Shown: positions 17,721 through 64,000 of the stretch, piece after piece
How positions within the stretch are numbered: the stretch's first letter is position 1
Layout: the number at the start of each line of letters is the position of its first letter
Assembly: GCA_944389615.1 (NCBI GenBank)
Contig: CALXNA010000008.1
Location: forward strand, 16,194-80,193
Source: an uncultured Anaerobiospirillum sp.
GTDB taxonomy: Bacteria; Pseudomonadota; Gammaproteobacteria; Enterobacterales; Succinivibrionaceae
Reading direction: 5' to 3'
DNA length: 64,000 bases
Program-made: the position numbers and the translations under genes
Notes under the pieces: model-generated
Told to the model about the DNA's origin: nothing
Database searches by the model: none
What the model saw: the letters and a program-made list of their open reading frames with translations, nothing else

Positions 17721-19106
17721 CTACTCTGCCGCCTTATCCTGAGCTAAGCCTAAGCGCGTGAGCAGCTGCTCTAACTCTTGCTCGTTGTTGTAGCTTAAGG
17801 TGAGCTTGCCCTTGGTGCTCTTAGCGCTGGCTGCCAAGCTAAACTTGGCGACCACGCCGCCCAACTGGGCATTGAGGGTCGACTCGCATTGCTCTAAGTA
17901 CGAGCGTAGCTGCTCTTTGAGGCGCTGCTTATCGGCCTGACCTTGCTTAGGAGCGCGCTTTTTACGCTGCTCGGCGCTGAGATGCTTTTTGATGTACTCC
18001 TCAGTGGCGCGCACCGAGAGCTGCTTTTTGATGATGAGCTCGCACAGCTCCACTTGGGTGGCATCGTCAAAGCCCACAATGAGCTTGCCGTGACCGAAGT
18101 TGATGTCACCGCGGCGCAGCGCCTCCTGTACCTGCTCGTTCATGGTGGTCAGGCGCAGGTAGTTGGCCACCGCCGAGCGCGATTTGCCGACACTGGCGGC
18201 AACCTGCTCTTGGGTCATGCCGCACTCTTGCATCATCTGCTCAAAGGCAATTGCCAGCTCAATTGGGTTTAAGCTCTCGCGCTGGATGTTTTCAATCAGG
18301 GCGATGGCGTAGGCCTTTTCATCGACCACATCACGCACTAAGCACGGCAGTTCAGTCAAGCCTGCGAGCTTAGCCGCGCGGTAGCGGCGCTCACCGCAGA
18401 TAATCTCATAGCCCTGCTCGGGCGTGCGCTTGACGATCAAAGGCTCAAGCAGGCCATGCTCCATGATCGAGCTAGCCAGCTCCTTGATCGAATCGTCATC
18501 GAAGTAATCGCGCGGCTGATAGCTCGACGGATTCAACTGCGACAGCGCAATCTGGTGGATGCGGTTATCATCCTCGCCCGTCAGCATCACACCCGCAGCT
18601 GCCGCATGCTGCGCCATATGCGCTTGAATGGCCTCCGAGGCCGTGTCCATAGCAGACTCGGCCTTGCTATCAACCGCCTGCGCCGCTGGCACGGTAGCAG
18701 CCTCCGCTGCCTTGCGACGGCGCTTGGGCTTAGTGCGCTTGCGCGTCTCATCCAAGATCTGCTGCATCTTGGCTTCTTGCTCAGGGGTGACGTCATCGAG
18801 CAAATTGCCTTGCACCGCACACGGTGCCGCACTCGACTCACTTATCTCATGCGCTTCAGTCTTGCTTGGCTTGGTTTTCTTGGAGCTGCGGCGCTTAGGC
18901 GCAGGGGTGATCTCTGGGGTTAGAACCTCTTCGCTTGTGCCCTCAACTTGCAGCGCCCCGATCTCTTGCTGGTCGGCCACGCCCTTAGACTGCAGGGAGC
19001 GCACAATCAGGTCTTGCCCGACCACCCCTTGGCTGCCGTTGACCTTGGCACTTTTAGACGAGCTTTGACTGAGTAATGCGCCTAAACCACGGCCTAAACC
19101 TGCCAT
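17721..19106 (-). CDS. parB: Chromosome partitioning protein ParB/Spo0J
   Basis: ParB box CGERRYRAA, HTH GMTQEQVAASVGKSRSAVANYLRL. A ~170-aa low-complexity N-terminal region makes it long (461 aa). Confidence 0.9.
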   Translation of the reverse strand: MAGLGRGLGALLSQSSSKSAKVNGSQGVVGQDLIVRSLQSKGVADQQEIGALQVEGTSEEVLTPEITPAPKRRSSKKTKPSKTEAHEISESSAAPCAVQGNLLDDVTPEQEAKMQQILDETRKRTKPKRRRKAAEAATVPAAQAVDSKAESAMDTASEAIQAHMAQHAAAAGVMLTGEDDNRIHQIALSQLNPSSYQPRDYFDDDSIKELASSIMEHGLLEPLIVKRTPEQGYEIICGERRYRAAKLAGLTELPCLVRDVVDEKAYAIALIENIQRESLNPIELAIAFEQMMQECGMTQEQVAASVGKSRSAVANYLRLTTMNEQVQEALRRGDINFGHGKLIVGFDDATQVELCELIIKKQLSVRATEEYIKKHLSAEQRKKRAPKQGQADKQRLKEQLRSYLEQCESTLNAQLGGVVAKFSLAASAKSTKGKLTLSYNNEQELEQLLTRLGLAQDKAAE

Positions 19107-19164: not shown

Positions 19165-20157
19165 CTAAGCGGACGTCCGCGTTGTCTTGGCCCGCGCCGT
19201 AGTTGGGCGCGCTGCGGGCGCCGCAGCTTGCGGTGTAGTTTGCGCCCGTGGGGCCGCCGCTACCTTCGCCACGGCCTTGACCTGCGCTTGGGGAGCGGGC
19301 ACAGCGTGAGGCGCAGCCGCAGGCTGGGCCGGAGCCTTGCGGACGGTCTTGGCAGCACGCGCTTTAGCCACAGCCTCTTGGCGCTTGGCCTCCAGCAAAT
19401 CCTTTTCTAAAATCTCGGCGGCTAAGGCGAGGTAGGCCTTGGTGCCGGTGGAGTTCTTATCGTAGTAGAGGGCAGGCTTAGCGTAGCTCGGCGCTTCAGC
19501 CAAGCGCACATTGCGCGGGATGATGGTCTTGTAGACCAAGTCGCCAAAGCTCTGCTCTAAGTCTTGCGAGACGTCGGCCGACAAGCGGTTACGATTGTCG
19601 TACATCGTGCGCAAGATGCCTTCGATCTTGAGGTTGGGATTAACCGCGCGTGCCAGCTGGTCGACCGTGTCGATGAGGAGCGTTAAGCCCTCTAAGGCAA
19701 AGTACTCACATTGTAGCGGCACTAAGATGCTGTCGGCGGCGCACATGGCGTTGACCGTGAGCAGGTTGAGCGAAGGCGGGCAATCGATTAAAACGTAGTC
19801 GTAGTTGGCGACAATAGCGGTTAAGGCGTTCTTGAGGCGGAACTCGCGCACTAAGAAATCAAGCAGCTTGACCTCGGCCGCGGTGAGGTCTTCGTTGGCA
19901 GGGATGATGTGATATCCCCCGGAGGTCTGGGCGATGACGCACTCGCGGATGTCGATGCCATCGATCAAGACTTGGGTGATCGAATGGGGCAAGTTGAACT
20001 TGTTGACGCCCGAGGCCATAGTGGCATTGCCCTGCGGGTCGGAGTCAATCAACAGCACCCGCTTTTGCATCGCCGCAAGCGAAGCCGCGAGATTCACGCA
20101 AGTGGTAGTTTTACCCACGCCACCTTTTTGATTGGCGATCGCAATAACCTTGGCCAT
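19165..20157 (-). CDS. parA: Chromosome partitioning ATPase ParA/Soj with an Ala/Pro-rich C-terminal tail
   Basis: MAKVIAIANQKGGVGKTTT deviant Walker A. The likely start is at 20157 (ORF track 19165..20214). Confidence 0.9.
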   Translation of the reverse strand: MAKVIAIANQKGGVGKTTTCVNLAASLAAMQKRVLLIDSDPQGNATMASGVNKFNLPHSITQVLIDGIDIRECVIAQTSGGYHIIPANEDLTAAEVKLLDFLVREFRLKNALTAIVANYDYVLIDCPPSLNLLTVNAMCAADSILVPLQCEYFALEGLTLLIDTVDQLARAVNPNLKIEGILRTMYDNRNRLSADVSQDLEQSFGDLVYKTIIPRNVRLAEAPSYAKPALYYDKNSTGTKAYLALAAEILEKDLLEAKRQEAVAKARAAKTVRKAPAQPAAAPHAVPAPQAQVKAVAKVAAAPRAQTTPQAAAPAARPTTARAKTTRTSA

Positions 20158-20255
20158 AACCATCCTTGAGCAACTCAAAGCTGCCCGCCCACGAAGCTGC
20201 CACCATGCGCCCAAGGATCTGCCGCCAAGGCCAAGCTCAGCTCGGCTGCGGCGTG

Positions 20256-23249: not shown

Positions 23250-23600
23250 AGCTAGACGAAGATATAAGGATTCATGATCTGATCTTTATGATCTTTGATC
23301 TATTCTTCTTCTAGGGCGCCGTTTTAGTGGGATCAGGGCGCAAGCCTTGATGGCACGGGCCTTGGCGCATGTGGTTTGTTAGTGGGATCACTTTGGGCAA
23401 CTTGGCACTATCCAAATGGCAAGTTTTTAGCCGCGTTTTCTCCCACCCCAGTCCCACATCTTGCCCACATCATTTCCACGTCTTTACCCCAACGCAGCTC
23501 ACATTTTGATCACGCAAGATCCAACAACTCGGCCCCTAAATGCCAAAAATGTGACACATATCACACACAAAAGCGTCCGCTTTCCTTTCCTTGGGGAATA
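23250..23600. other. Candidate chromosomal replication origin (oriC-like)
   Basis: Lies ~300 bp upstream of mnmG, as in E. coli and Vibrio. An AT-rich stretch carries 4 GATC in ~24 bp and 13-mer-like words (GATCTGATCTTTA, GATCTTTGATCTA, GATCTATTCTTCT). TTAGTGGGATCA occurs twice (~23324, ~23379), followed by TATCCAAAT and a run of TCCCAC / CCCACAT / TTCCACG words (23436-23480). There are 9 GATC in ~320 bp. Confidence 0.45.
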
Positions 23601-26217: not shown

Positions 26218-27132
26218 GACGGCTCCTCTCGTTCCTCGGTTGCACCCATTGTACCTGCTAACCAAAGCGGGGCGGGTTCTGTAGTGGTACTCTTAAGATA
26301 GTGGAGCACGCAGGCTCAGGACGGCTCTCGGGTCTTGGCACAAATTTGCGATCGCGGTGGCAGGTCTGCTTCTGGCTTGTAACTGGGGTCTGCCGCTTGA
26401 GCCTAGATAGCACCTGCGGCCTCCGTGGCTGGTAGAAGCTGGGGGTAAAACGTGATCGCGCTTGGAGTTGTGGTTAATTGAAGTGGATTTAGGAAGTGGA
26501 AATTTGGCGAGTTCGACCTAGCCCCGATTTGGCGGCGATCGTCGTCGCTCACCTTCTTTGTCAAGCGAAAAATTTAGAAAAATTATCAAGCATCTTTTGA
26601 CCGTTTGCCTACAATAAAGGAGTCGGCACGAGTTCTCGCGTGCACGAGAACCGCGACTGAAAGCCTGTATTTATGCCGGGGCGCGCGATCGCAGCTTGTG
26701 GGAAAAGTCCCTGTGAGGACAGCTCCCTACGACCGGCCGCTACAGGGGCGTTGTGGTATCTGTTACGACCAGCCCGGCACAGCCCATGCTGTGACAGGCG
26801 CCTGACGAAGACAACTTTAGTTCACCAACATAAGGCTGACTCAAAGCTGTTGTTACCTGCGTTTTGCTCGCAGGTAATGAAAGCAAGTCGGCTTTTGTTT
26901 GCGCTAAAGAAAGCTCAGCTCCCAAGGAGAAGCTCAAAGCCTCTGCATCTGAGCCTGCGGCTCAGTGCGTGCAGGGTGGGGCAGGAGCGTCGTCAGAGGG
27001 TTACAGCGACAACGCAGTTACAAGTTTTTGGGCGTCACTTGACGCCTTTGTTTTGTGTAGCAGTGACGGCCTGCGCCTTGGGGGCCGTGAACTGATGCAC
27101 AACCTAAGTAGCTAATGACTGGGGGATCGTGG

Positions 27133-35159: not shown

Positions 35160-35540
35160 CGCGTTTATGGGGCCGAAGTGGGACGATAGCGTTTGCGCTC
35201 AGAAAAGCGATAAACATCGCATTGGTTGCGCCGGTATAGATAGCATTGGAGTATCTAGTTTTGACTATGTTTGAGACTTGGTGTGGGGCTTATTACTTGT
35301 GGGAAAATTTCAAGGAACTACCGCCTGCTAGTTGCTATCAAGCTGATATAATAGCGTCTTTTATGTGTAGATAGCTTGTGGGATTCTTTGGAGAATATCA
35401 CGCGCAGTTTGTGATTTTCCCACAAGCAGACTCAACTGAAGATGTGCGTTAGAACCTTCGTGAACAAAACTATACTGTATTAGCTTTTTAGCTTATAGTT
35501 TGGTGTGTTATCTATTATTATGTTTTGACACGAAAAATCT
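35160..35540. other. AT-rich non-coding patch carrying three CTTGTGGGAWW / WWTCCCACAAG boxes
   Basis: The AT content is conspicuously higher than in the surrounding DNA. Boxes lie at ~35296-35307 (cttgtgggaaaa), ~35375-35385 (cttgtgggatt) and ~35415-35426 (ttttcccacaag, inverted). Confidence 0.5.
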
Positions 35541-51503: not shown

Positions 51504-52378
51504 GAACAGCGGGCGCTGCAGGGATAGGGAGCCTTCGTGTGGGCTTGTACGGCCTTGGCAGAGCGCAGACCTGCGCCCAGCGCTGATGGCAGTACTGGGA
51601 TGTGCAAAGTAAGGCGTAGGGCGCGGGGGCGGTAGTGATCATAGGCTAACTTAGTCTTGGCTTGGATCCCCGATCCGATCAGTGTGCGCATAATCTGCGG
51701 TGCAAGTTGGTAACTAGATACAGAGCAAAAAATTTTTTGCGCAGGGTTTGGCGCAGGTTGCGGAGTGCCTGCGGCGTTACATGAGATCTGGGCAGGAAAC
51801 ACGAAGCCGACAGGAATGCGCCATGGCGCTAATTTTGATCAGCAACCTGCGCAAATTGGGGCTGAGAGTGTCCCCGCGCGCTTGGGCGGTGAGGATCGAC
51901 GAAAGGCTTGTCGATCTCATTTGAGCGCAGTTTGGCCCTTGATCTTGGACGGCGATCACCTTATGATGGATCTGGTTTCCGGTGGTTTTCGGAGTGCTTG
52001 TCTCATCGGTATGAGGCAAGTGCAATGCAAAATCCACGTCAATGCGGAGCTGGCGGAAAGGAAGGCGGGTTGTGGTAACTCGCACCTTCGTGCAGCATCA
52101 TCCTAATCAAACAACAAACAATCGAGTGTTTTTGGTGGTACTGGCAGCCTTGGGGGCTGAGCCAACATCATGACCCCATTGCGGCTAGCCTAAGTGCAGC
52201 CTGCTGCGAGCGTCTAGCTCATAGCGACCAGCTGCGAGCAGCTGCGAGCAACCTGCTTGAGGCAGCGTACTTGGTACAGTTACGGCAAAGCTTCCCCGGT
52301 CTGATTATGTTTGACCGTAGGGGGTAGACGGGGCCTTCGGTTGGAGTTTGTTTAGCGGAGACGTAAACCGGAAGATGC

Positions 52379-52570
52379 GATCGTGGCTGCGCAATTTAGC
52401 TTGATCTTTGATCGCTGCGCCGAGATCGTTTAGGATCCAAGGCGTGAGGCTAAAACCCGATCTGGATCAGGTTTGCGCGCTAAAAAGATCGTGGATCTGA
52501 TCCGATAAGATCGATTAAGATCAGCTTAGTCTCTTTGGTGAGATCGAGGCTGCGATCGATTGCTGGGATC
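52379..52570. promoter_or_regulatory. Extreme GATC cluster (15 sites in ~190 bp), 450-640 bp upstream of dnaA
   Basis: GATC was read at ~52379, 52403, 52410, 52424, 52434, 52459, 52465, 52487, 52494, 52499, 52509, 52519, 52542, 52554 and 52567. The region includes GATCGTGGATCTGATCCGATAAGATCG. Confidence 0.65.
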
Positions 52571-53021
52571 GAGGGACTGGGTGTTATTGGTTAGAGGAGA
52601 TAGTTCGCGCGTGATTGCTGCCACGGAGGCCTAGGTCGAAGTCACCATGCTTCTGCATCATGCTTACGCATCATGTTGCTGCGGTATTGAGCTCGGCACC
52701 TACCATGGTAGAGAGTTTCAGGCGTACTCCCTAGTGCTTGAGTAATGGGGCCACGACTCCACCAGAGCGTAGTCGTATTATCGGTTGAATGGTTGCTTAA
52801 GTGCGTCTGTGCGGGCGCGGGCCGTTTGATCGCAGTTGAAGTCATTGGCTGACCGTGTTGCGGCCCTTCGTGTTAGAAGACCGTGGATGCGGAGGCTGCT
52901 CTTAGAGCGCGTAAAGATTCCCGATACACGCTTCATCTCCAAAAGCGCCATAGCTGAATGGTGCTAGGTCGTTTTTGCAGATGGTGGCGGGGGTGATACG
53001 ACGCTGAGGGTATGGTTCTAT

Positions 53022-56000
53022 ATGGACTCTTGGCAAATCTGGCGTCAGGCAATTTTAAGGGTTGCTACGTCAACAGCAGAGACCTTAGAGGCGAAGGTCA
53101 TCAAGCTCTTCTTCTATGAGGTGGGCTTCATCCTTGACCTTGAGCTCGATAAGGTTCGTCTCGTCTGCTCCTCGGAATACGCCTTAAGGAGCTTTGCTCC
53201 TTATAGCTGGCGGTGCTTTGCCGAGGTCAAGGCGCTGCTGCGTAACCCAAATCTCGGCTACTCTTTGGAGATCGTATCGCCCAAGGAGCAGGCCGTGCTG
53301 TGCGCTTCAGGTAAGCTGCCTCAATCTGAGTTCTTAGCGGGGATTAGCCTCGCTGAGTCCGAGCTTCAGGCGCCATCAACCTTCCCTAAGGTTGATTGCA
53401 TCATCACCTCAGGCCCGACGGCGGGCTTTAATCCGATCAATGTCGGCGTTAGCACTTTCCCACAAGGCTTAAGTCCTCTGGGAGGCGCATGCGCAGCGGC
53501 TTGGAGCGCTCCTATCGCCCCAAGTGTCGCGCCTACTTTCCCACAAGTAACGCCGGTCAGCGCCCCTGCGGCACAACAACCTGCGCAGGCCGCTGCGGAT
53601 GCGAGCGCATCTGCAGCAAGCGCGCCTGCTGCGGCTGGAAGCGCGCCTGATACGAGTGCCTCCGCCTCTACCGATTTTGCGCCTACTGCGGCCGCAAGCC
53701 GTCAGTATGGCTCTTACCCTATTCAGGAGCAGTCAGCTGCTGCGGTCACGACAGATCAGGTCTTTGGCCACGGTGGTGAAGCTGCGACTGATGTTGTAAA
53801 AACTGGCGATTTAGCATCGCTACGGTTAACTGATAACTCCTCGTTTAGTGAGGAACATGACACAAACCATCGGGAATTCAAAACTTCGTCATGGGTTACA
53901 GCTCCCCAACCGAGCAACTGCGTTTCCGGCATCGAATTCTCCGAGCCAGCGCAGGATGATGCGGTCCATAACCAGACTTATGATCGCCAGTCCCTTAACA
54001 ACAGCGATTTAGCTCAGCCTTCAGCGGAAGGATTAGCTCCTGAGGCCTATGAGTTCATGGCGCCTCCGGTTAGCTGCGCCCCGGTCGATCTGCCGCCTGA
54101 AGACGACTTCGTCTTAGCCGGGGCCGATATGCATGGCGCCAGCGGCTTAGGCGTTGAGCTCACCGCGGCCGGAGCGCTGCAGAGCGCGCAGCCGGGCCCT
54201 TCAGGGGGCACGGCCGCCAAGTTCAATCAAAACGCTGAGGCTTTAGCCGCACGCATCAACAACACCTTGTTGGTGCCGCCGTTTGATTACCCAGAAGGGG
54301 CCTCGTACGACGACTGGTATGCCCAAACAGGCTACCAAGCCGCAACCTCGGCCCTGCCGCCGCGCGAGCAGTTTGAGCTGTTCCCTTTTGATCCAGATCT
54401 GCAGCCGCCCCAGCGCGACTTTGATGAACCTGAGATCGCGGTAGTCACTCCGTCTACCCCGTCGGCGCCTCACACCGCGTCTGTGGCCCCTCAGGCTATG
54501 CCGTCCCAGGCTCCTCAAGTAGCTTCGCAAGTAGCTGTGCCGCACTCTGTGCCACAAGTTGTGCCGCAGGCGCAGCCGATGCCTGCGCAGATTCCTGCGC
54601 TGGGGCCGCAAGCGGTGCTGCCTCCTGCTGAGGTGTCGCCGCAAGTGACGTCTCACTTGCCGCCGCAAGATTTGGTGCCATCAGAGTTAGCCCGCCCGCA
54701 GTCTCAGGTCGAGACTGCTTTGGTGTCTCATCAGACCAAGGTGATGCCTGAGATTAGACTTCAAGCCCAGCTAGGGGCGACTCTTGCTCAGCCGCAGGTG
54801 CCGCTGCAGGTGCCGCAGGCTCAGCCGGTAGCACAGCCCGTAGTGCAGCCTGCTGCCGTGGCAGCGACCGTTTTGTCGGATGTGCCGCAGTCGGTACAGG
54901 ATATTACGCGCTGCGAAGAGCTGGCCGATGAAATCTTGCAGCCCACGCATGCCTCGGCCTTGGTGAGGGAAGCCTTAAACGTTAAGGCCCAGCGCGAGCA
55001 AGCCGCCCGCAGCGCCAGCATTGCGGCCTTACCGAAGGTGGTATCAGGCCCGATGGCTAGCGTCTATGCCGCGGCCGCCAAGCGTAAGCGCAATTGTTCG
55101 TCGCTGCCGCAGCCTAATGCGCTGTTAAGCCAAGAGAAGGTGCAGACCACGACGCTCAATCCTGATGAGCCAGCGGTGCTACCGGCTCCGGAGTTGCTGC
55201 GCCAAGTCGAGCAAGGCGTGGGTGGACTCACCCCATTCTTACCGAACGATGGCTCGCGCCATCAGCTCAACTTAGATAACTTCAAGTTGAGCGCTGAGCA
55301 GATTGCCGCTAGCAAGAAGCTCAATCAGGTCTTAGCCGAACAGTTTAAACAGATCTCGTCCCAGCGCTTGATCTACAAGGCCCGTCAAGCTGAGTTGGCC
55401 AAAAACCGCGCCATGTCGCATAAGCGTAAGGGCGAGCCACAGCTGCTGGAGCGCTTTGAGGGTTACTTGCCGGGCATGGATCCGGTGACCTTCCAGCCGC
55501 TGCCGCAAAATCAGCTCGATCCGCTGCATCCTAATGCCTTAGGCGGGATGCCGCTTGCGGGCAGTCCGTTTGCCCCGCAAGTGCCAGAGCAGCCGGAGCT
55601 GACGCTCTCCGTGCCGATGGTTGAGGTCAATCCGGTCAAGACCTTTAGCACCTATGTCTCGGATACACGCAACTTCGAGATTTTGAATGCTGCTTCGCTG
55701 TTGGCGCAGTATGTGGGCGTGCCGCAAGTCAACCCATTCTTACTCTACGGTGACTCGGGCGTGGGCAAGACCCATATCCTGCATGCGATTGCCAACGCGA
55801 TTGCGTACTATCACCCTGAGTACAAGGTGGCCTTTATCCGCGCCGAAGAGTTCTTGCAGAACTATGTCTCTTCGATCTCGGAGAGCGGTAAGAATCGCTT
55901 TGCTGACAGTCAGATCTACTTCCAGCAGGCCTTTTTGCAGTATGACGTGTTGATTTTCGACGACATCCAAGCCTTGGCTAAGGGCGTCAAGAGCCGTCAG

Positions 56001-56684
56001 GTCTTCTTTGAAGTGATCTCGGCCTTCCTTGATCGTCCGGGCACGCAGCTTATTGTGGCTTCGAATCAGATGCCACGTGAGCTCAAGGACAAGGGCTTTG
56101 ATGCCAGCTTGCTCTCGCGCATGGGCTCAGGTTTATGCATGCCGCTGCTCAAGCCGAACTGGGCCAATCGCCGCGACATCGTCAACGCCAAGTGCCAAGA
56201 GATGGGGATCACCATGTCTGAGGACATTGTGGACTACATCTCGATGAACCTCAATCCGAACGTGCGTGAGATCGAGGGTGCGTTGAAGACGCTGCACTCC
56301 TTCTTAAACAGCAATGGCTCACTCACCTATGACGATGCTGTGCGTACGCTCTCAGGCTTCATTAGCGCTGGGGCGGGCCATGTGCTCACCATAAGTGAGA
56401 TCCAGTCGACCGTGGCCAAGGAGTTTGGTGTGTCGGTCAAAGACTTGCTCTCCAGCTGCAAGAAGAAGGCGATCTCGCAGGCGCGCTCGCTGGCCATGAC
56501 CATTGCCCGCGATGTCATCGCCAACAACTCGCTCAACGATCTGGGGCGTGCCTTCAAGAAGGATCACACCTCAGTGCACGAAGCGATTGTCCGTACCCGT
56601 GATCGACTCCAGCATGACAGCGCCTTAAAAGAAAAGTACGATCACATCATCAAGGCCTTATCCGAGCTGGCGCGCAAGCCATAG
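53022..56684 (+). CDS. dnaA: Chromosomal replication initiator DnaA, 1220 aa with a ~780-aa Pro/Ala/Gln-rich domain II
   Basis: Domain I-like N-terminus (aa 1-90). AAA+ domain III with GDSGVGKTH (aa 910-918) and VLIFDDIQ. Domain IV has ISQARSLAMTIARDV...LNDLGRAFKKDHTSVHEAI. The frame stays open throughout. Confidence 0.85.
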   Translation: MDSWQIWRQAILRVATSTAETLEAKVIKLFFYEVGFILDLELDKVRLVCSSEYALRSFAPYSWRCFAEVKALLRNPNLGYSLEIVSPKEQAVLCASGKLPQSEFLAGISLAESELQAPSTFPKVDCIITSGPTAGFNPINVGVSTFPQGLSPLGGACAAAWSAPIAPSVAPTFPQVTPVSAPAAQQPAQAAADASASAASAPAAAGSAPDTSASASTDFAPTAAASRQYGSYPIQEQSAAAVTTDQVFGHGGEAATDVVKTGDLASLRLTDNSSFSEEHDTNHREFKTSSWVTAPQPSNCVSGIEFSEPAQDDAVHNQTYDRQSLNNSDLAQPSAEGLAPEAYEFMAPPVSCAPVDLPPEDDFVLAGADMHGASGLGVELTAAGALQSAQPGPSGGTAAKFNQNAEALAARINNTLLVPPFDYPEGASYDDWYAQTGYQAATSALPPREQFELFPFDPDLQPPQRDFDEPEIAVVTPSTPSAPHTASVAPQAMPSQAPQVASQVAVPHSVPQVVPQAQPMPAQIPALGPQAVLPPAEVSPQVTSHLPPQDLVPSELARPQSQVETALVSHQTKVMPEIRLQAQLGATLAQPQVPLQVPQAQPVAQPVVQPAAVAATVLSDVPQSVQDITRCEELADEILQPTHASALVREALNVKAQREQAARSASIAALPKVVSGPMASVYAAAAKRKRNCSSLPQPNALLSQEKVQTTTLNPDEPAVLPAPELLRQVEQGVGGLTPFLPNDGSRHQLNLDNFKLSAEQIAASKKLNQVLAEQFKQISSQRLIYKARQAELAKNRAMSHKRKGEPQLLERFEGYLPGMDPVTFQPLPQNQLDPLHPNALGGMPLAGSPFAPQVPEQPELTLSVPMVEVNPVKTFSTYVSDTRNFEILNAASLLAQYVGVPQVNPFLLYGDSGVGKTHILHAIANAIAYYHPEYKVAFIRAEEFLQNYVSSISESGKNRFADSQIYFQQAFLQYDVLIFDDIQALAKGVKSRQVFFEVISAFLDRPGTQLIVASNQMPRELKDKGFDASLLSRMGSGLCMPLLKPNWANRRDIVNAKCQEMGITMSEDIVDYISMNLNPNVREIEGALKTLHSFLNSNGSLTYDDAVRTLSGFISAGAGHVLTISEIQSTVAKEFGVSVKDLLSSCKKKAISQARSLAMTIARDVIANNSLNDLGRAFKKDHTSVHEAIVRTRDRLQHDSALKEKYDHIIKALSELARKP

Positions 56685-62627: not shown

Positions 62628-62650
62628 AAGGCAGCTGTGGCTGCCTTTTT
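62628..62650 (+). terminator. Rho-independent terminator candidate downstream of gyrB
   Basis: aaggcagc-tgtg-gctgcctt followed by tttc. Confidence 0.6.
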
Positions 62651-62732
62651 CACGTCCAATAAATTTAACATAAGATAAAGGAGCGGGCGCTGGTACCAAG
62701 TGTGAAACTATCGGCACCAACTTGTGGGGAAA

Positions 62733-62748
62733 TGTTCCACGCGGAACA
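62733..62748. other. parS-like site TGTTCCACGCGGAACA (1 mismatch to TGTTCCACGTGGAACA)
   Basis: Embedded in a ~40-bp inverted repeat, cttgtggggaaatgttccac / gcggaacattatcccacaag. Confidence 0.75.
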
Positions 62749-62915
62749 TTATCCCACAAGCACCACGACAATGTTCCACACACTCCGAAGCTCGATTACA
62801 TCAGGCCTGCGCGCCTCGCAGCACTGGTGGGAAAGTGCCGCCAGCACGCTGCTCCACGGCTCGCGCCACCCCCGCAGATGCGGAGCGCACCTCTGCCGCT
62901 GTGGGTTAAAGTCAA

Positions 62916-62931
62916 TGTTCCACATGGAACA
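62916..62931. other. parS-like site TGTTCCACATGGAACA (1 mismatch)
   Basis: Read directly. Followed by ttggtggga. Confidence 0.75.
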
Positions 62932-63009
62932 TTGGTGGGAGGAAATCCATCACGCGCTCAGGCCGTCTCACAAGCGCCGATGGGGTGGGCGCTGCCGCGC
63001 TCGGCTTAA

Positions 63010-63025
63010 TGTTCCACATGGAACA
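63010..63025. other. parS-like site TGTTCCACATGGAACA (1 mismatch)
   Basis: Read directly. Followed by tcgtaggtgggaaaag. Confidence 0.75.
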
Positions 63026-63106
63026 TCGTAGGTGGGAAAAGTGCGAAGCCGAGCATCATAGCCTTGGTGGGAACTGATGGCTTTTCCACCAAGCGCAGGC
63101 CGCATA

Positions 63107-63122
63107 TGTTCCACGTGGAACA
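63107..63122. other. parS site TGTTCCACGTGGAACA (perfect palindrome)
   Basis: Read directly. Followed by tttccccac. Confidence 0.85.
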
Positions 63123-63274
63123 TTTCCCCACTGAATCGAATGCAATCCACCAGCGCTTATCCTTCTGCGCGCAATCAGAAAACTACTGGCAGGCGCACCG
63201 AACAGAGCTGTCTCTACGGTGGGATTTAGAGACATCTGCGCAGCAAAAACCTGATATCTATCAGCTGCGCGCAC

Positions 63275-63290
63275 TGTTCCACGTGGAACA
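63275..63290. other. parS site TGTTCCACGTGGAACA (perfect palindrome)
   Basis: Read directly. Confidence 0.85.
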
Positions 63291-63430
63291 GAGCTTGGGG
63301 GGCAAAAGTGATCAGAGCTGTTCCCACCACTGCGCGCTTAGTAGGAAAGCGCGCAGGTTGGCTGCAGTTTAACTCGTGGGAGATCGCGCCCAGAAGCGCA
63401 TCGCCGCTGATAGATATCGGTTTGGTGTCA

Positions 63431-63446
63431 TGTTCCATGTGGAACA
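63431..63446. other. parS-like site TGTTCCATGTGGAACA (1 mismatch)
   Basis: Read directly. Followed by aagataggtgggaaagg. Confidence 0.75.
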
Positions 63447-63532
63447 AAGATAGGTGGGAAAGGCGGTACTCAGTCACATCATCCAACTAAGAGCCCCCCA
63501 AGAGCTGCCCGCTTCCTTTGATGGTGGATTAA

Positions 63533-63548
63533 TGTTCCGCGTGGAACA
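63533..63548. other. parS-like site TGTTCCGCGTGGAACA (1 mismatch)
   Basis: Read directly. Preceded by gatggtggattaa. Confidence 0.75.
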
Positions 63549-63827
63549 TGGCAGCGCGCACTTTTCCCACGCTCGACAATCTTATTCCCACCGCAGTCGG
63601 GGCAGGCTGGGGGCAATGCGGTGCATCGTGGTGCAAACTGCTGCGAGAAATGGGCAAGAGGAGCGCAGTAGTGCCCACCGCGGTGTCGCGCAGTTTGCCC
63701 GCAGGTCGTTTTCACCCAGCTTGTAACTTTTCTTAGCCTGCGGCGCTACTTGCAGGAAAAGTAAGAGCAGCTCTGGGGAAAATGAGCACAGTAGCGCTCA
63801 AAAGACGATAGATAAGCCGTTTCGTTT

Positions 63828-63843
63828 GGTTCCACGTGGAACA
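63828..63843. other. parS-like site GGTTCCACGTGGAACA (1 mismatch)
   Basis: Read directly. Followed by gtgctcgtgggaaaagc. Confidence 0.75.
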
Positions 63844-63971
63844 GTGCTCGTGGGAAAAGCGCACCAACTTTTGCGCCGCAGCGTCAATCCCACCACGAAT
63901 CAGCCGTGCATATGACCTGCGCGCGCTGGTGGATTGCGCTGGGGATTGGTGGTGGAATCTAAGTGGGATAA

Positions 63972-63987
63972 TGTTCCACGTGGAACA
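63972..63987. other. parS site TGTTCCACGTGGAACA (perfect palindrome)
   Basis: Read directly. Preceded by aagtgggataa. Confidence 0.85.
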
Positions 63988-64000
63988 TTTGGCATAACGC

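Follow-up and report, generated by a model that had tools for sequence, protein, structure and literature searches.

A dense array of predicted parS sites downstream of gyrB in an uncultured Anaerobiospirillum and a putative variant DnaA box interleaved with it

The right-hand end of a 64,000-nt stretch of DNA from an uncultured Anaerobiospirillum sp. of the family Succinivibrionaceae (assembly GCA_944389615.1, contig CALXNA010000008.1, positions 16,194 to 80,193; the whole of this stretch is referred to below as the window) harbours nine copies of the ParB-binding palindrome parS, packed into non-coding DNA downstream of gyrB. It can be predicted with little doubt that this array is the sole ParB centromere of the chromosome, since nine sites stand against none expected, all genomic copies lie within the array, ParA and ParB are of the canonical type, the location is origin-proximal and the arrangement is conserved in relatives. 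The array also contains a second motif, GTGGGA(A/T)AA, which we are inclined to regard, on comparison of the sequences, as the family's variant of the DnaA box, TGTGGGAAA rather than TGTGGATAA. Taken as a whole, a ParB centromere with interleaved variant DnaA boxes is probably the best explanation of the locus. A dense parS array alone is of a known kind, with a precedent in Myxococcus xanthus, and of modest interest; what appears to be new is that such arrays are spread through the family, that a DnaA-like partner motif is position-locked to the sites, and that a change of DnaA-box specificity is implied.

The sites were searched for with TGTTCCACGTGGAACA at up to two mismatches, both in the window (C8:16194-80193 of genome G000) and in the whole assembly, a draft of 3.28 Mb in 84 contigs with a completeness of 95.7%, and 100 dinucleotide-preserving shuffles served as the control. 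In the window, nine 16-mers were found at 62733-63987, three of them perfect copies of TGTTCCACGTGGAACA and six with one mismatch, all fitting the 16-bp palindrome TGTTNCACGTGAAACA, versus no match in the shuffled sequence. An earlier note on this DNA, made from the letters alone, had listed the same three perfect and six imperfect sites, and the search recovered every one of its coordinates, as well as the irregular distances of 94-295 bp between neighbours and a half-site placed at ~62772, which is present as TGTTCCAC at 62773 and is conserved in relatives. Across the assembly the count is again nine at no more than one mismatch, none at two, and two dispersed copies at three, which corresponds to the chance level; all genomic parS copies are confined to one origin-proximal block of 1.25 kb. 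This count rules out a dispersed, REP-like repeat. The related proposal of a partition site left by an integrated plasmid or another mobile element, with no relation to the chromosomal ParB, retains hardly any probability either: the same locus is occupied in several genera, blastn found no match in PLSDB (72,556 plasmids), and what is repeated here is the canonical chromosomal parS, which the recF sites of other Gammaproteobacteria share. No observation was found in favour of either idea.

The array lies in a block of 1.94 kb of non-coding DNA between gyrB and a convergent gene of the PTPS family, which is reached, on the minus strand, at approximately window-equivalent position 64445 and has fur and glyS/glyQ as its next neighbours. 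The earlier statement that this stretch holds no credible ORF proved sound: the ORFs of the block do not exceed 109 aa and gave no Pfam match below E 0.01, no Rfam family was matched by the block at E≤1, and a promoter/terminator scan of it returned one weak promoter-like and one terminator-like site, not above shuffles. A hidden gene or RNA in the block was rejected on these three analyses. As the earlier note had it, the array extends to the edge of the window, and the contig sequence past position 64000 contains no further parS; next to the last site lies a 40-nt patch with 87.5% A+T (L001:2199-2238), beyond which the DNA is GC-rich and non-coding. A separate observation concerns the word TTAACATAA, which is present at the left edge of the block (62665-62673), has an inverted copy, TTATGTTAA, in the AT patch at the right edge (L001:2213-2230), and is found at both block edges in relatives.

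The genes for the partition proteins, parA and parB, were located within the 17.7-20.2 kb interval given in the earlier note. They belong to a minus-strand group, gidA-gidB-parA-parB, at 17.7-23.0 kb, while dnaA-dnaN-recF-gyrB occupy the plus strand at 53.0-62.5 kb. ParB possesses the Pfam domains ParB_N and HTH_ParB, an N-terminal ParA-binding peptide (MAGLGRGLGALL) and the CTP motif GERRxRA in the form GERRYRAA. Its helix-turn-helix (HTH) region matches ParB proteins solved with or without parS at E values of 1e-39 to 1e-51, and the protein is similar to Spo0J of Bacillus subtilis (E 1.9e-51) and to the Helicobacter pylori ParB of the parS co-crystal (6.7e-48). A low-complexity insert of ~165 residues separates the ParA-binding N-terminal peptide from the ParB N domain. 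The array is 43 kb away from parAB; its distance to both the oriC-like regions and the minimum of the GC skew is 27-40 kb, on one side of the likely origin, which agrees with the ~40 kb proposed earlier.

The loci of relatives were retrieved by means of GyrB, which is 95-97% identical to GyrB of Anaerobiospirillum metagenome-assembled genomes, and the family survey comprised 81 Succinivibrionaceae genomes. The same position after gyrB is occupied by 13, 12 and 5-6 parS in three close Anaerobiospirillum relatives and by 11, in a 1.8-kb spacer of 24% GC, in a Succinatimonas. In the family, parS is present in 62 of the 81 genomes, in many of them as dense arrays, with numbers that range from 2 to at least 26; one block contains six perfect parS within ~650 bp. 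Two arrays from other genera are periodic, one with 26 parS at a strict period of 122-123 bp (G022:C46:30024-33600, partly L127) and the other with 11 parS at 77-83 bp, in which the repeat unit also carries the palindrome TTCCATGGAA (G035:C118:40420-41302, L124). A regular head-to-tail unit of this kind is absent from the array of G000. The position of the array and the palindrome are kept across related species and genera, whereas the spacers diverge. The dedicated ParB loading platform suggested in the earlier note thus remains a well-founded prediction, given that the palindrome is confined to the array, that arrays are kept at the same place in relatives and that ParB is canonical.

In most of the other Gammaproteobacteria sampled (Rhodanobacter, Moraxella, Arenimonas and others), two parS are located inside recF, ~750 and ~130 bp before gyrB. 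The 16-mer and the dnaA-dnaN-recF-gyrB neighbourhood are the same in both cases, but there the two sites are embedded in coding sequence, while 9-26 sites in dedicated non-coding DNA are found in Succinivibrionaceae. When recF of G000 was scanned for a relic of parS, none was detected, the best match having 6 mismatches. As far as sequence comparison can tell, this is a family-level replacement of the ancestral recF-embedded parS by a dedicated non-coding centromere.

Many ParB-family palindromes in gene-free DNA are also a property of F-plasmid sopC and of plasmid tandem centromeres, in the case of sopC with a different binder, SopB, and a different palindrome. Compared with sopC, the chromosomal arrays of the relatives are periodic (26 sites at 123 bp, 11 at ~78 bp), while the array of the window is irregular and chromosomal. 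In M. xanthus, according to two reports, 22 parS lie in ~3 kb, with parA ~4 kb and oriC ~35 kb away (Iniesta 2014, PMC3899335; Harms 2013, PMC3778016); the consensus given there is TGTTCCACGTGGAACG, and ParB bound a 3.12-kb fragment of the cluster in vitro (PMC3899335). The M. xanthus cluster and the present array share the palindrome, a density of ~1 site per 140 bp, a distance of tens of kb from oriC and the inclusion of nearly all genomic parS. Hence, of the earlier claim that the array is unusually concentrated, the density stands, yet it is not without precedent. Unlike the M. xanthus cluster, the array belongs to another phylum, lies after gyrB and far from parAB, and has several sites accompanied by a position-locked second motif; the section of PMC3899335 on the cluster describes neither a partner motif nor DnaA boxes.

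The earlier note had treated the DNA between the sites as plain spacer, a view that can no longer be held, since this DNA carries a second conserved and position-locked motif (Table 1). Its core, GTGGGA, is present in 14 copies in the 1301 bp of the array versus 0.34 expected from the genome-wide density, and the degenerate copies GTGGGG and GGTGGA occur in the array as well. In the units of the form parS-N6-GTGGGAAAA (once N7), the box without exception lies on the plus strand, at the end of parS that faces away from gyrB; 2+1 such units were counted in G000 and 5, 5 and 2 in three relatives. Alignment of the first and last units from four species revealed 11/11 invariant columns in the +6 box and 14-15/16 in parS, versus 41/197 outside the marked blocks. 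The site parS1 is flanked by CTTGTGGGGAAA on one side and TTATCCCACAAG on the other, which read CTTGTGGGAAAA and TTTTCCCACAAG in relatives; in the alignment of this unit the flanks are invariant and the central 4 nt are variable. In the arrays of distant congeners, TTTCCCACA(A/G) is the top non-parS word.

Table 1. Coordinates of the array and of associated features in the window
Feature	Position	Strand	Remarks
parS1	62733..62748	.	TGTTCCACGCGGAACA, 1 mismatch; box-like words symmetric on the flanks form a ~40-bp palindrome
parS2	62916..62931	.	1 mismatch
parS3	63010..63025	.	1 mismatch
parS4	63107..63122	.	perfect
parS5	63275..63290	.	perfect
parS6	63431..63446	.	1 mismatch
parS7	63533..63548	.	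1 mismatch
parS8	63828..63843	.	1 mismatch; 14/16 columns invariant in 4 species
parS9	63972..63987	.	perfect; last site; followed by the invariant word TTGGCATA and, beyond the window, the AT-rich patch
parS half-site	62773..62780	+	TGTTCCAC; kept in relatives, 9/11 columns invariant
Strong-consensus box	62749..62757	-	CTTGTGGGATAA; abuts parS1; 16.2 bits by a position weight matrix (PWM) from another genus
Box-like word	63032..63040	+	GTGGGAAAA; 6 nt after parS3
Box-like word	63454..63462	+	GTGGGAAAG; 7 nt after parS6
Box-like word	63850..63858	+	GTGGGAAAA; 6 nt after parS8; 11/11 columns invariant in 4 species
Box	63963..63971	+	GTGGGATAA; abuts parS9
Nine other GTGGGA cores	62827..63893	+ and -	+: 62827, 62935, 63067, 63219, 63376; -: 63322-63327, 63565-63570, 63586-63591, 63888-63893
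Third conserved word	63251..63264	.	CTGATATCTATCAG; 10 nt before parS5; similar words at 63408-63421 and 63806-63819
gyrB terminator-like hairpin and T run	62630..62651	+	read from the sequence, unlisted by the consensus scan; left edge of the non-coding block
parB	17721..19106	-	461 aa: ParA-binding peptide, ~165-aa low-complexity insert, GERRYRAA motif, HTH
parA	19165..20214	-	ParA-type ATPase domain
oriC-like region upstream of gidA	23270..23520	.	GATC-led AT-rich 13-mer-like repeats, two TTAGTGGGATCA, TCCCAC/CCCAC words

In addition to the two motifs, a third word, CTGATA(N2-3)TATCAG, stands 8-10 nt ahead of several parS sites, and its copy at 63806-63819 is invariant in 11/14 alignment columns. 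The relatives have it as GCTGATAAATATCAGC, the right half of which fits the consensus WATCARNNNNTTR of integration host factor (IHF). The only other cluster of GTGGGA in the genome (G000:C7:18540-18830) turned out to be a 27-nt tandem repeat of ~11 copies, holding GTGGGAT, inside a coding region, and was set aside as unrelated.

Written as TTTCCCACA or GTGGGAWAA, the second motif shares 7/9 positions with the DnaA box TTATCCACA. Canonical 9-mers fitting TTATNCACA are absent from the array and form no cluster anywhere in the assembly; six perfect copies of the canonical box exist genome-wide, and no 600-bp interval contains more than two when one mismatch is allowed. Meanwhile, the origin region on the gidA side of G000 contains two TTAGTGGGATCA and several (T)CCCAC words beside AT-rich repeats, and the TGTGGGAAA-type word is likewise found at the gidA side in other genera, adjoining AT-rich DNA. 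In one of these (L106:2360-3600), 26 GTGGGA cores are present in 1.5 kb of 24%-GC DNA next to an AT tract, arranged in opposed runs (GTGGGAAAC ... TTTCCCACA), and nothing else speaks as clearly for a DnaA box peculiar to the family. According to a PWM built from the L106 boxes alone, the parS array is the densest cluster in G000. One Succinivibrio has three copies of the word directly upstream of dnaA. The extended form TTGTGGGAWA occurs ten times in the genome of G000, six times on the contig of the window (2.8% of the genome): 419 bp upstream of nrdD, twice in the AT-rich gap at 35.3 kb, twice in the 5' part of dnaA and once in the array.

The DnaA protein itself may point in the same direction. 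Its domain IV reads SLNDLGRAF(K/N)KDH(T/S)SVHEA throughout the family, versus SLPEIGDAFGGRDHTTV(L/M)HA in other Gammaproteobacteria, and the changes relative to E. coli or B. subtilis are R399K, P423N, R432K, L438H and H439E. Positions 399, 423, 432, 438 and 439 are among those that make base-specific contacts (PMC5043019). It is because no canonical cluster exists, because the variant word is found at gidA-side origins, dnaA and nrdD, and because the contact positions of DnaA are changed that a variant DnaA box is the reading we lean towards. Literature searches on the variant box words and on oriC of Succinivibrionaceae found nothing relevant.

Some further features of DnaA and its possible sites deserve mention. 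DnaA is encoded by a 1220-aa ORF (53022-56684, plus strand) with a normal domain I, a Pro/Gln/Ala-rich linker of ~780 residues, the AAA+ domain and domain IV. Strong TTGTGGGAAA boxes are located at 26696, upstream of nrdD, and at 53456 and 53537, inside dnaA near its 5' end; the two copies within this gene are translated as a repeated TFPQ/K peptide. Upstream of dnaA, in the interval 51600-52600, a dense GATC cluster (15 in 500 bp versus ~2.5 expected; 450-640 bp upstream of the gene) is free of second-motif boxes.

Several points weigh against the combined explanation. At the position of T in the strong consensus (TTGTGGGAAA), G or C is seen in the +6 boxes (VGTGGGAAAAG), and together with the preceding CAC the +6 box resembles a parS half with an extra G, which makes another binder, even ParB, conceivable. 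In two more distant congeners, G002 and G038, the boxes are present but stand at other spacings and orientations. The partner motif was not found in the arrays of other genera despite the divergent DnaA domain IV that they share; hence the pairing appears to be genus-specific, and the type of DnaA does not predict it. The footprinting covers four closely related species, and some of the blocks were delimited after the alignment had been seen. Finally, in a draft assembly of 84 contigs that is 95.7% complete, further parS may reside in unassembled DNA.

Some of these points would suit an alternative in which DnaA does not bind the second motif at all. The motif would then be the site of another protein, such as a centromere accessory factor, a word resembling half a parS that ParB itself contacts (CACGTGG[G]AAAA versus CACGTGGAACA), or a functionless passenger of ancient duplications of the unit, and the array would serve ParB alone as an ordinary centromere. 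We consider this rather unlikely, though deserving of serious attention: the +6 boxes do deviate before GTGGGA and extend a parS-like CACGTGG core, arrays of genera with the same DnaA type do without the motif, and the arrays of the family grow by tandem duplication (periods of 123 and 78 bp), which can copy linked words. However, orthologous units keep both the motif and the exact distance of 6 nt, while the 6-nt spacer and the surroundings have diverged, and the same word is present at gidA-side origins and upstream of dnaA and nrdD with no parS near. Moreover, the heptamer TTCCCAC is two positions off the half-parS heptamer GTTCCAC.

If the motif is indeed a variant DnaA box, Caulobacter crescentus offers a parallel for the action of DnaA at a centromere: its DnaA binds boxes in the parS region via domain IV, and movement of the centromere requires DnaA-ATP (Mera 2014, as reviewed in PMC6399470). 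The Caulobacter region has few sites and no stereotyped array, unlike the present case, where up to five parS-N6-box units per species are found in one orientation, with a variant word and a binding that is predicted. Clusters of DnaA boxes outside oriC, namely datA/DARS of E. coli and the DnaA-box clusters (DBCs) of B. subtilis, lie near the origin and modulate initiation, and a strain of B. subtilis with the DBCs deleted showed a further phenotype when spo0J was also inactivated, as reported in the abstract of PMC3245932. Unlike these clusters, which consist of canonical boxes and have no parS at a fixed spacing, the boxes of the array are variant and interleaved with parS. The fullest version of our explanation is a composite centromere: in Anaerobiospirillum, each of several ParB sites would have, at a fixed 6 bp and with constant orientation, a lineage-specific DnaA box (TGTGGGAAA) recognised by a DnaA with altered DNA-contact residues. 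This version is put forward tentatively, as a possibility that we would not yet back.

The presence of the densest box-like cluster of the genome next to the dnaA operon raises the question of whether the block could be a replication origin, or a second one, with an AT-rich unwinding element and embedded parS. The 40-nt patch after the last parS might be such an element, and an AT-rich patch is found there in the three closest relatives too; in contrast to the gidA-side region, it contains no 13-mer-like repeats and no GATC. Against an origin in the block, the GATC-led AT-rich repeat set upstream of gidA at 23.27-23.52 kb is E. coli-like and accompanied by boxes, and the clear box clusters of the relatives are gidA-sided as well. 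The cumulative GC skew drops to ~22 kb and climbs strongly from 36 kb (the skew being negative before 22 kb and strongly positive at 36-46 kb), which puts the minimum, and with it the switch, within 22-36 kb rather than at 63 kb. The array is also GATC-poor, with 2 in 1301 bp versus 6.5 expected, unlike gammaproteobacterial origins of the Dam type (Dam/SeqA) and the gidA- and dnaA-side regions of this genome. An origin within the block is, in view of this, very improbable. As regards the skew, an AT-rich intergenic region between convergent genes at 35290-35430 (58% A+T over 500 bp), with the strong boxes CTTGTGGGAAAAT (two copies) and CTTGTGGGATTC (one copy), coincides with the second dip of the cumulative curve; it is a candidate for another DnaA-binding locus or for a part of the origin.

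Returning to the ParB centromere with its interleaved boxes, its operation can be outlined from general ParABS biology. ParB dimers would load at the nine parS, close as CTP-dependent clamps and slide to the flanking DNA; one large partition complex would form, and ParA, encoded 43 kb away beside gidAB, would separate the newly replicated origin regions. Nine loading sites in gene-free DNA between convergent genes would ensure high local loading with no spreading of ParB over promoters. DnaA, provided that it binds the boxes, would be located beside ParB, 5-6 bp apart on several units, and could either couple initiation to segregation in a Caulobacter-like manner or be titrated in a datA-like one, although each of these coupling mechanisms, taken singly, is held with less confidence than the variant box itself. 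With respect to condensin, a search of the genome for the SMC hinge gave no match, and a 1486-aa ORF at G000:C27:19490-19969 falls just below the Pfam cut-off for MukB. The condensin is probably of a divergent MukB/MukBEF type, and for this reason loading of SMC by ParB is not invoked.

Succinivibrionaceae are abundant in the gut and rumen, and their arrays form a series of site numbers, from 2 to at least 26 and in some cases perfectly periodic, that suits the question of why the number of sites matters for CTP-dependent loading of ParB. To our knowledge, the link between initiation of replication and segregation has been documented experimentally in a few model species only, and the position-locked motif offers a concrete candidate for such a link at the level of DNA. 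If the composite arrangement is real, DnaA-ATP and ParB would stand side by side within 1.3 kb; once initiation has taken place, DnaA could be titrated or inactivated by the array, or the occupancy of DnaA could license the loading of ParB or the release of the centromere, as proposed for Caulobacter. Beyond the array itself, the sequences suggest that the DnaA box has changed from TTATCCACA to TTTCCCACA throughout the family, along with base-contact residues of DnaA, and, if this is confirmed, origin predictors that depend on canonical boxes would need to be adjusted for Succinivibrionaceae.

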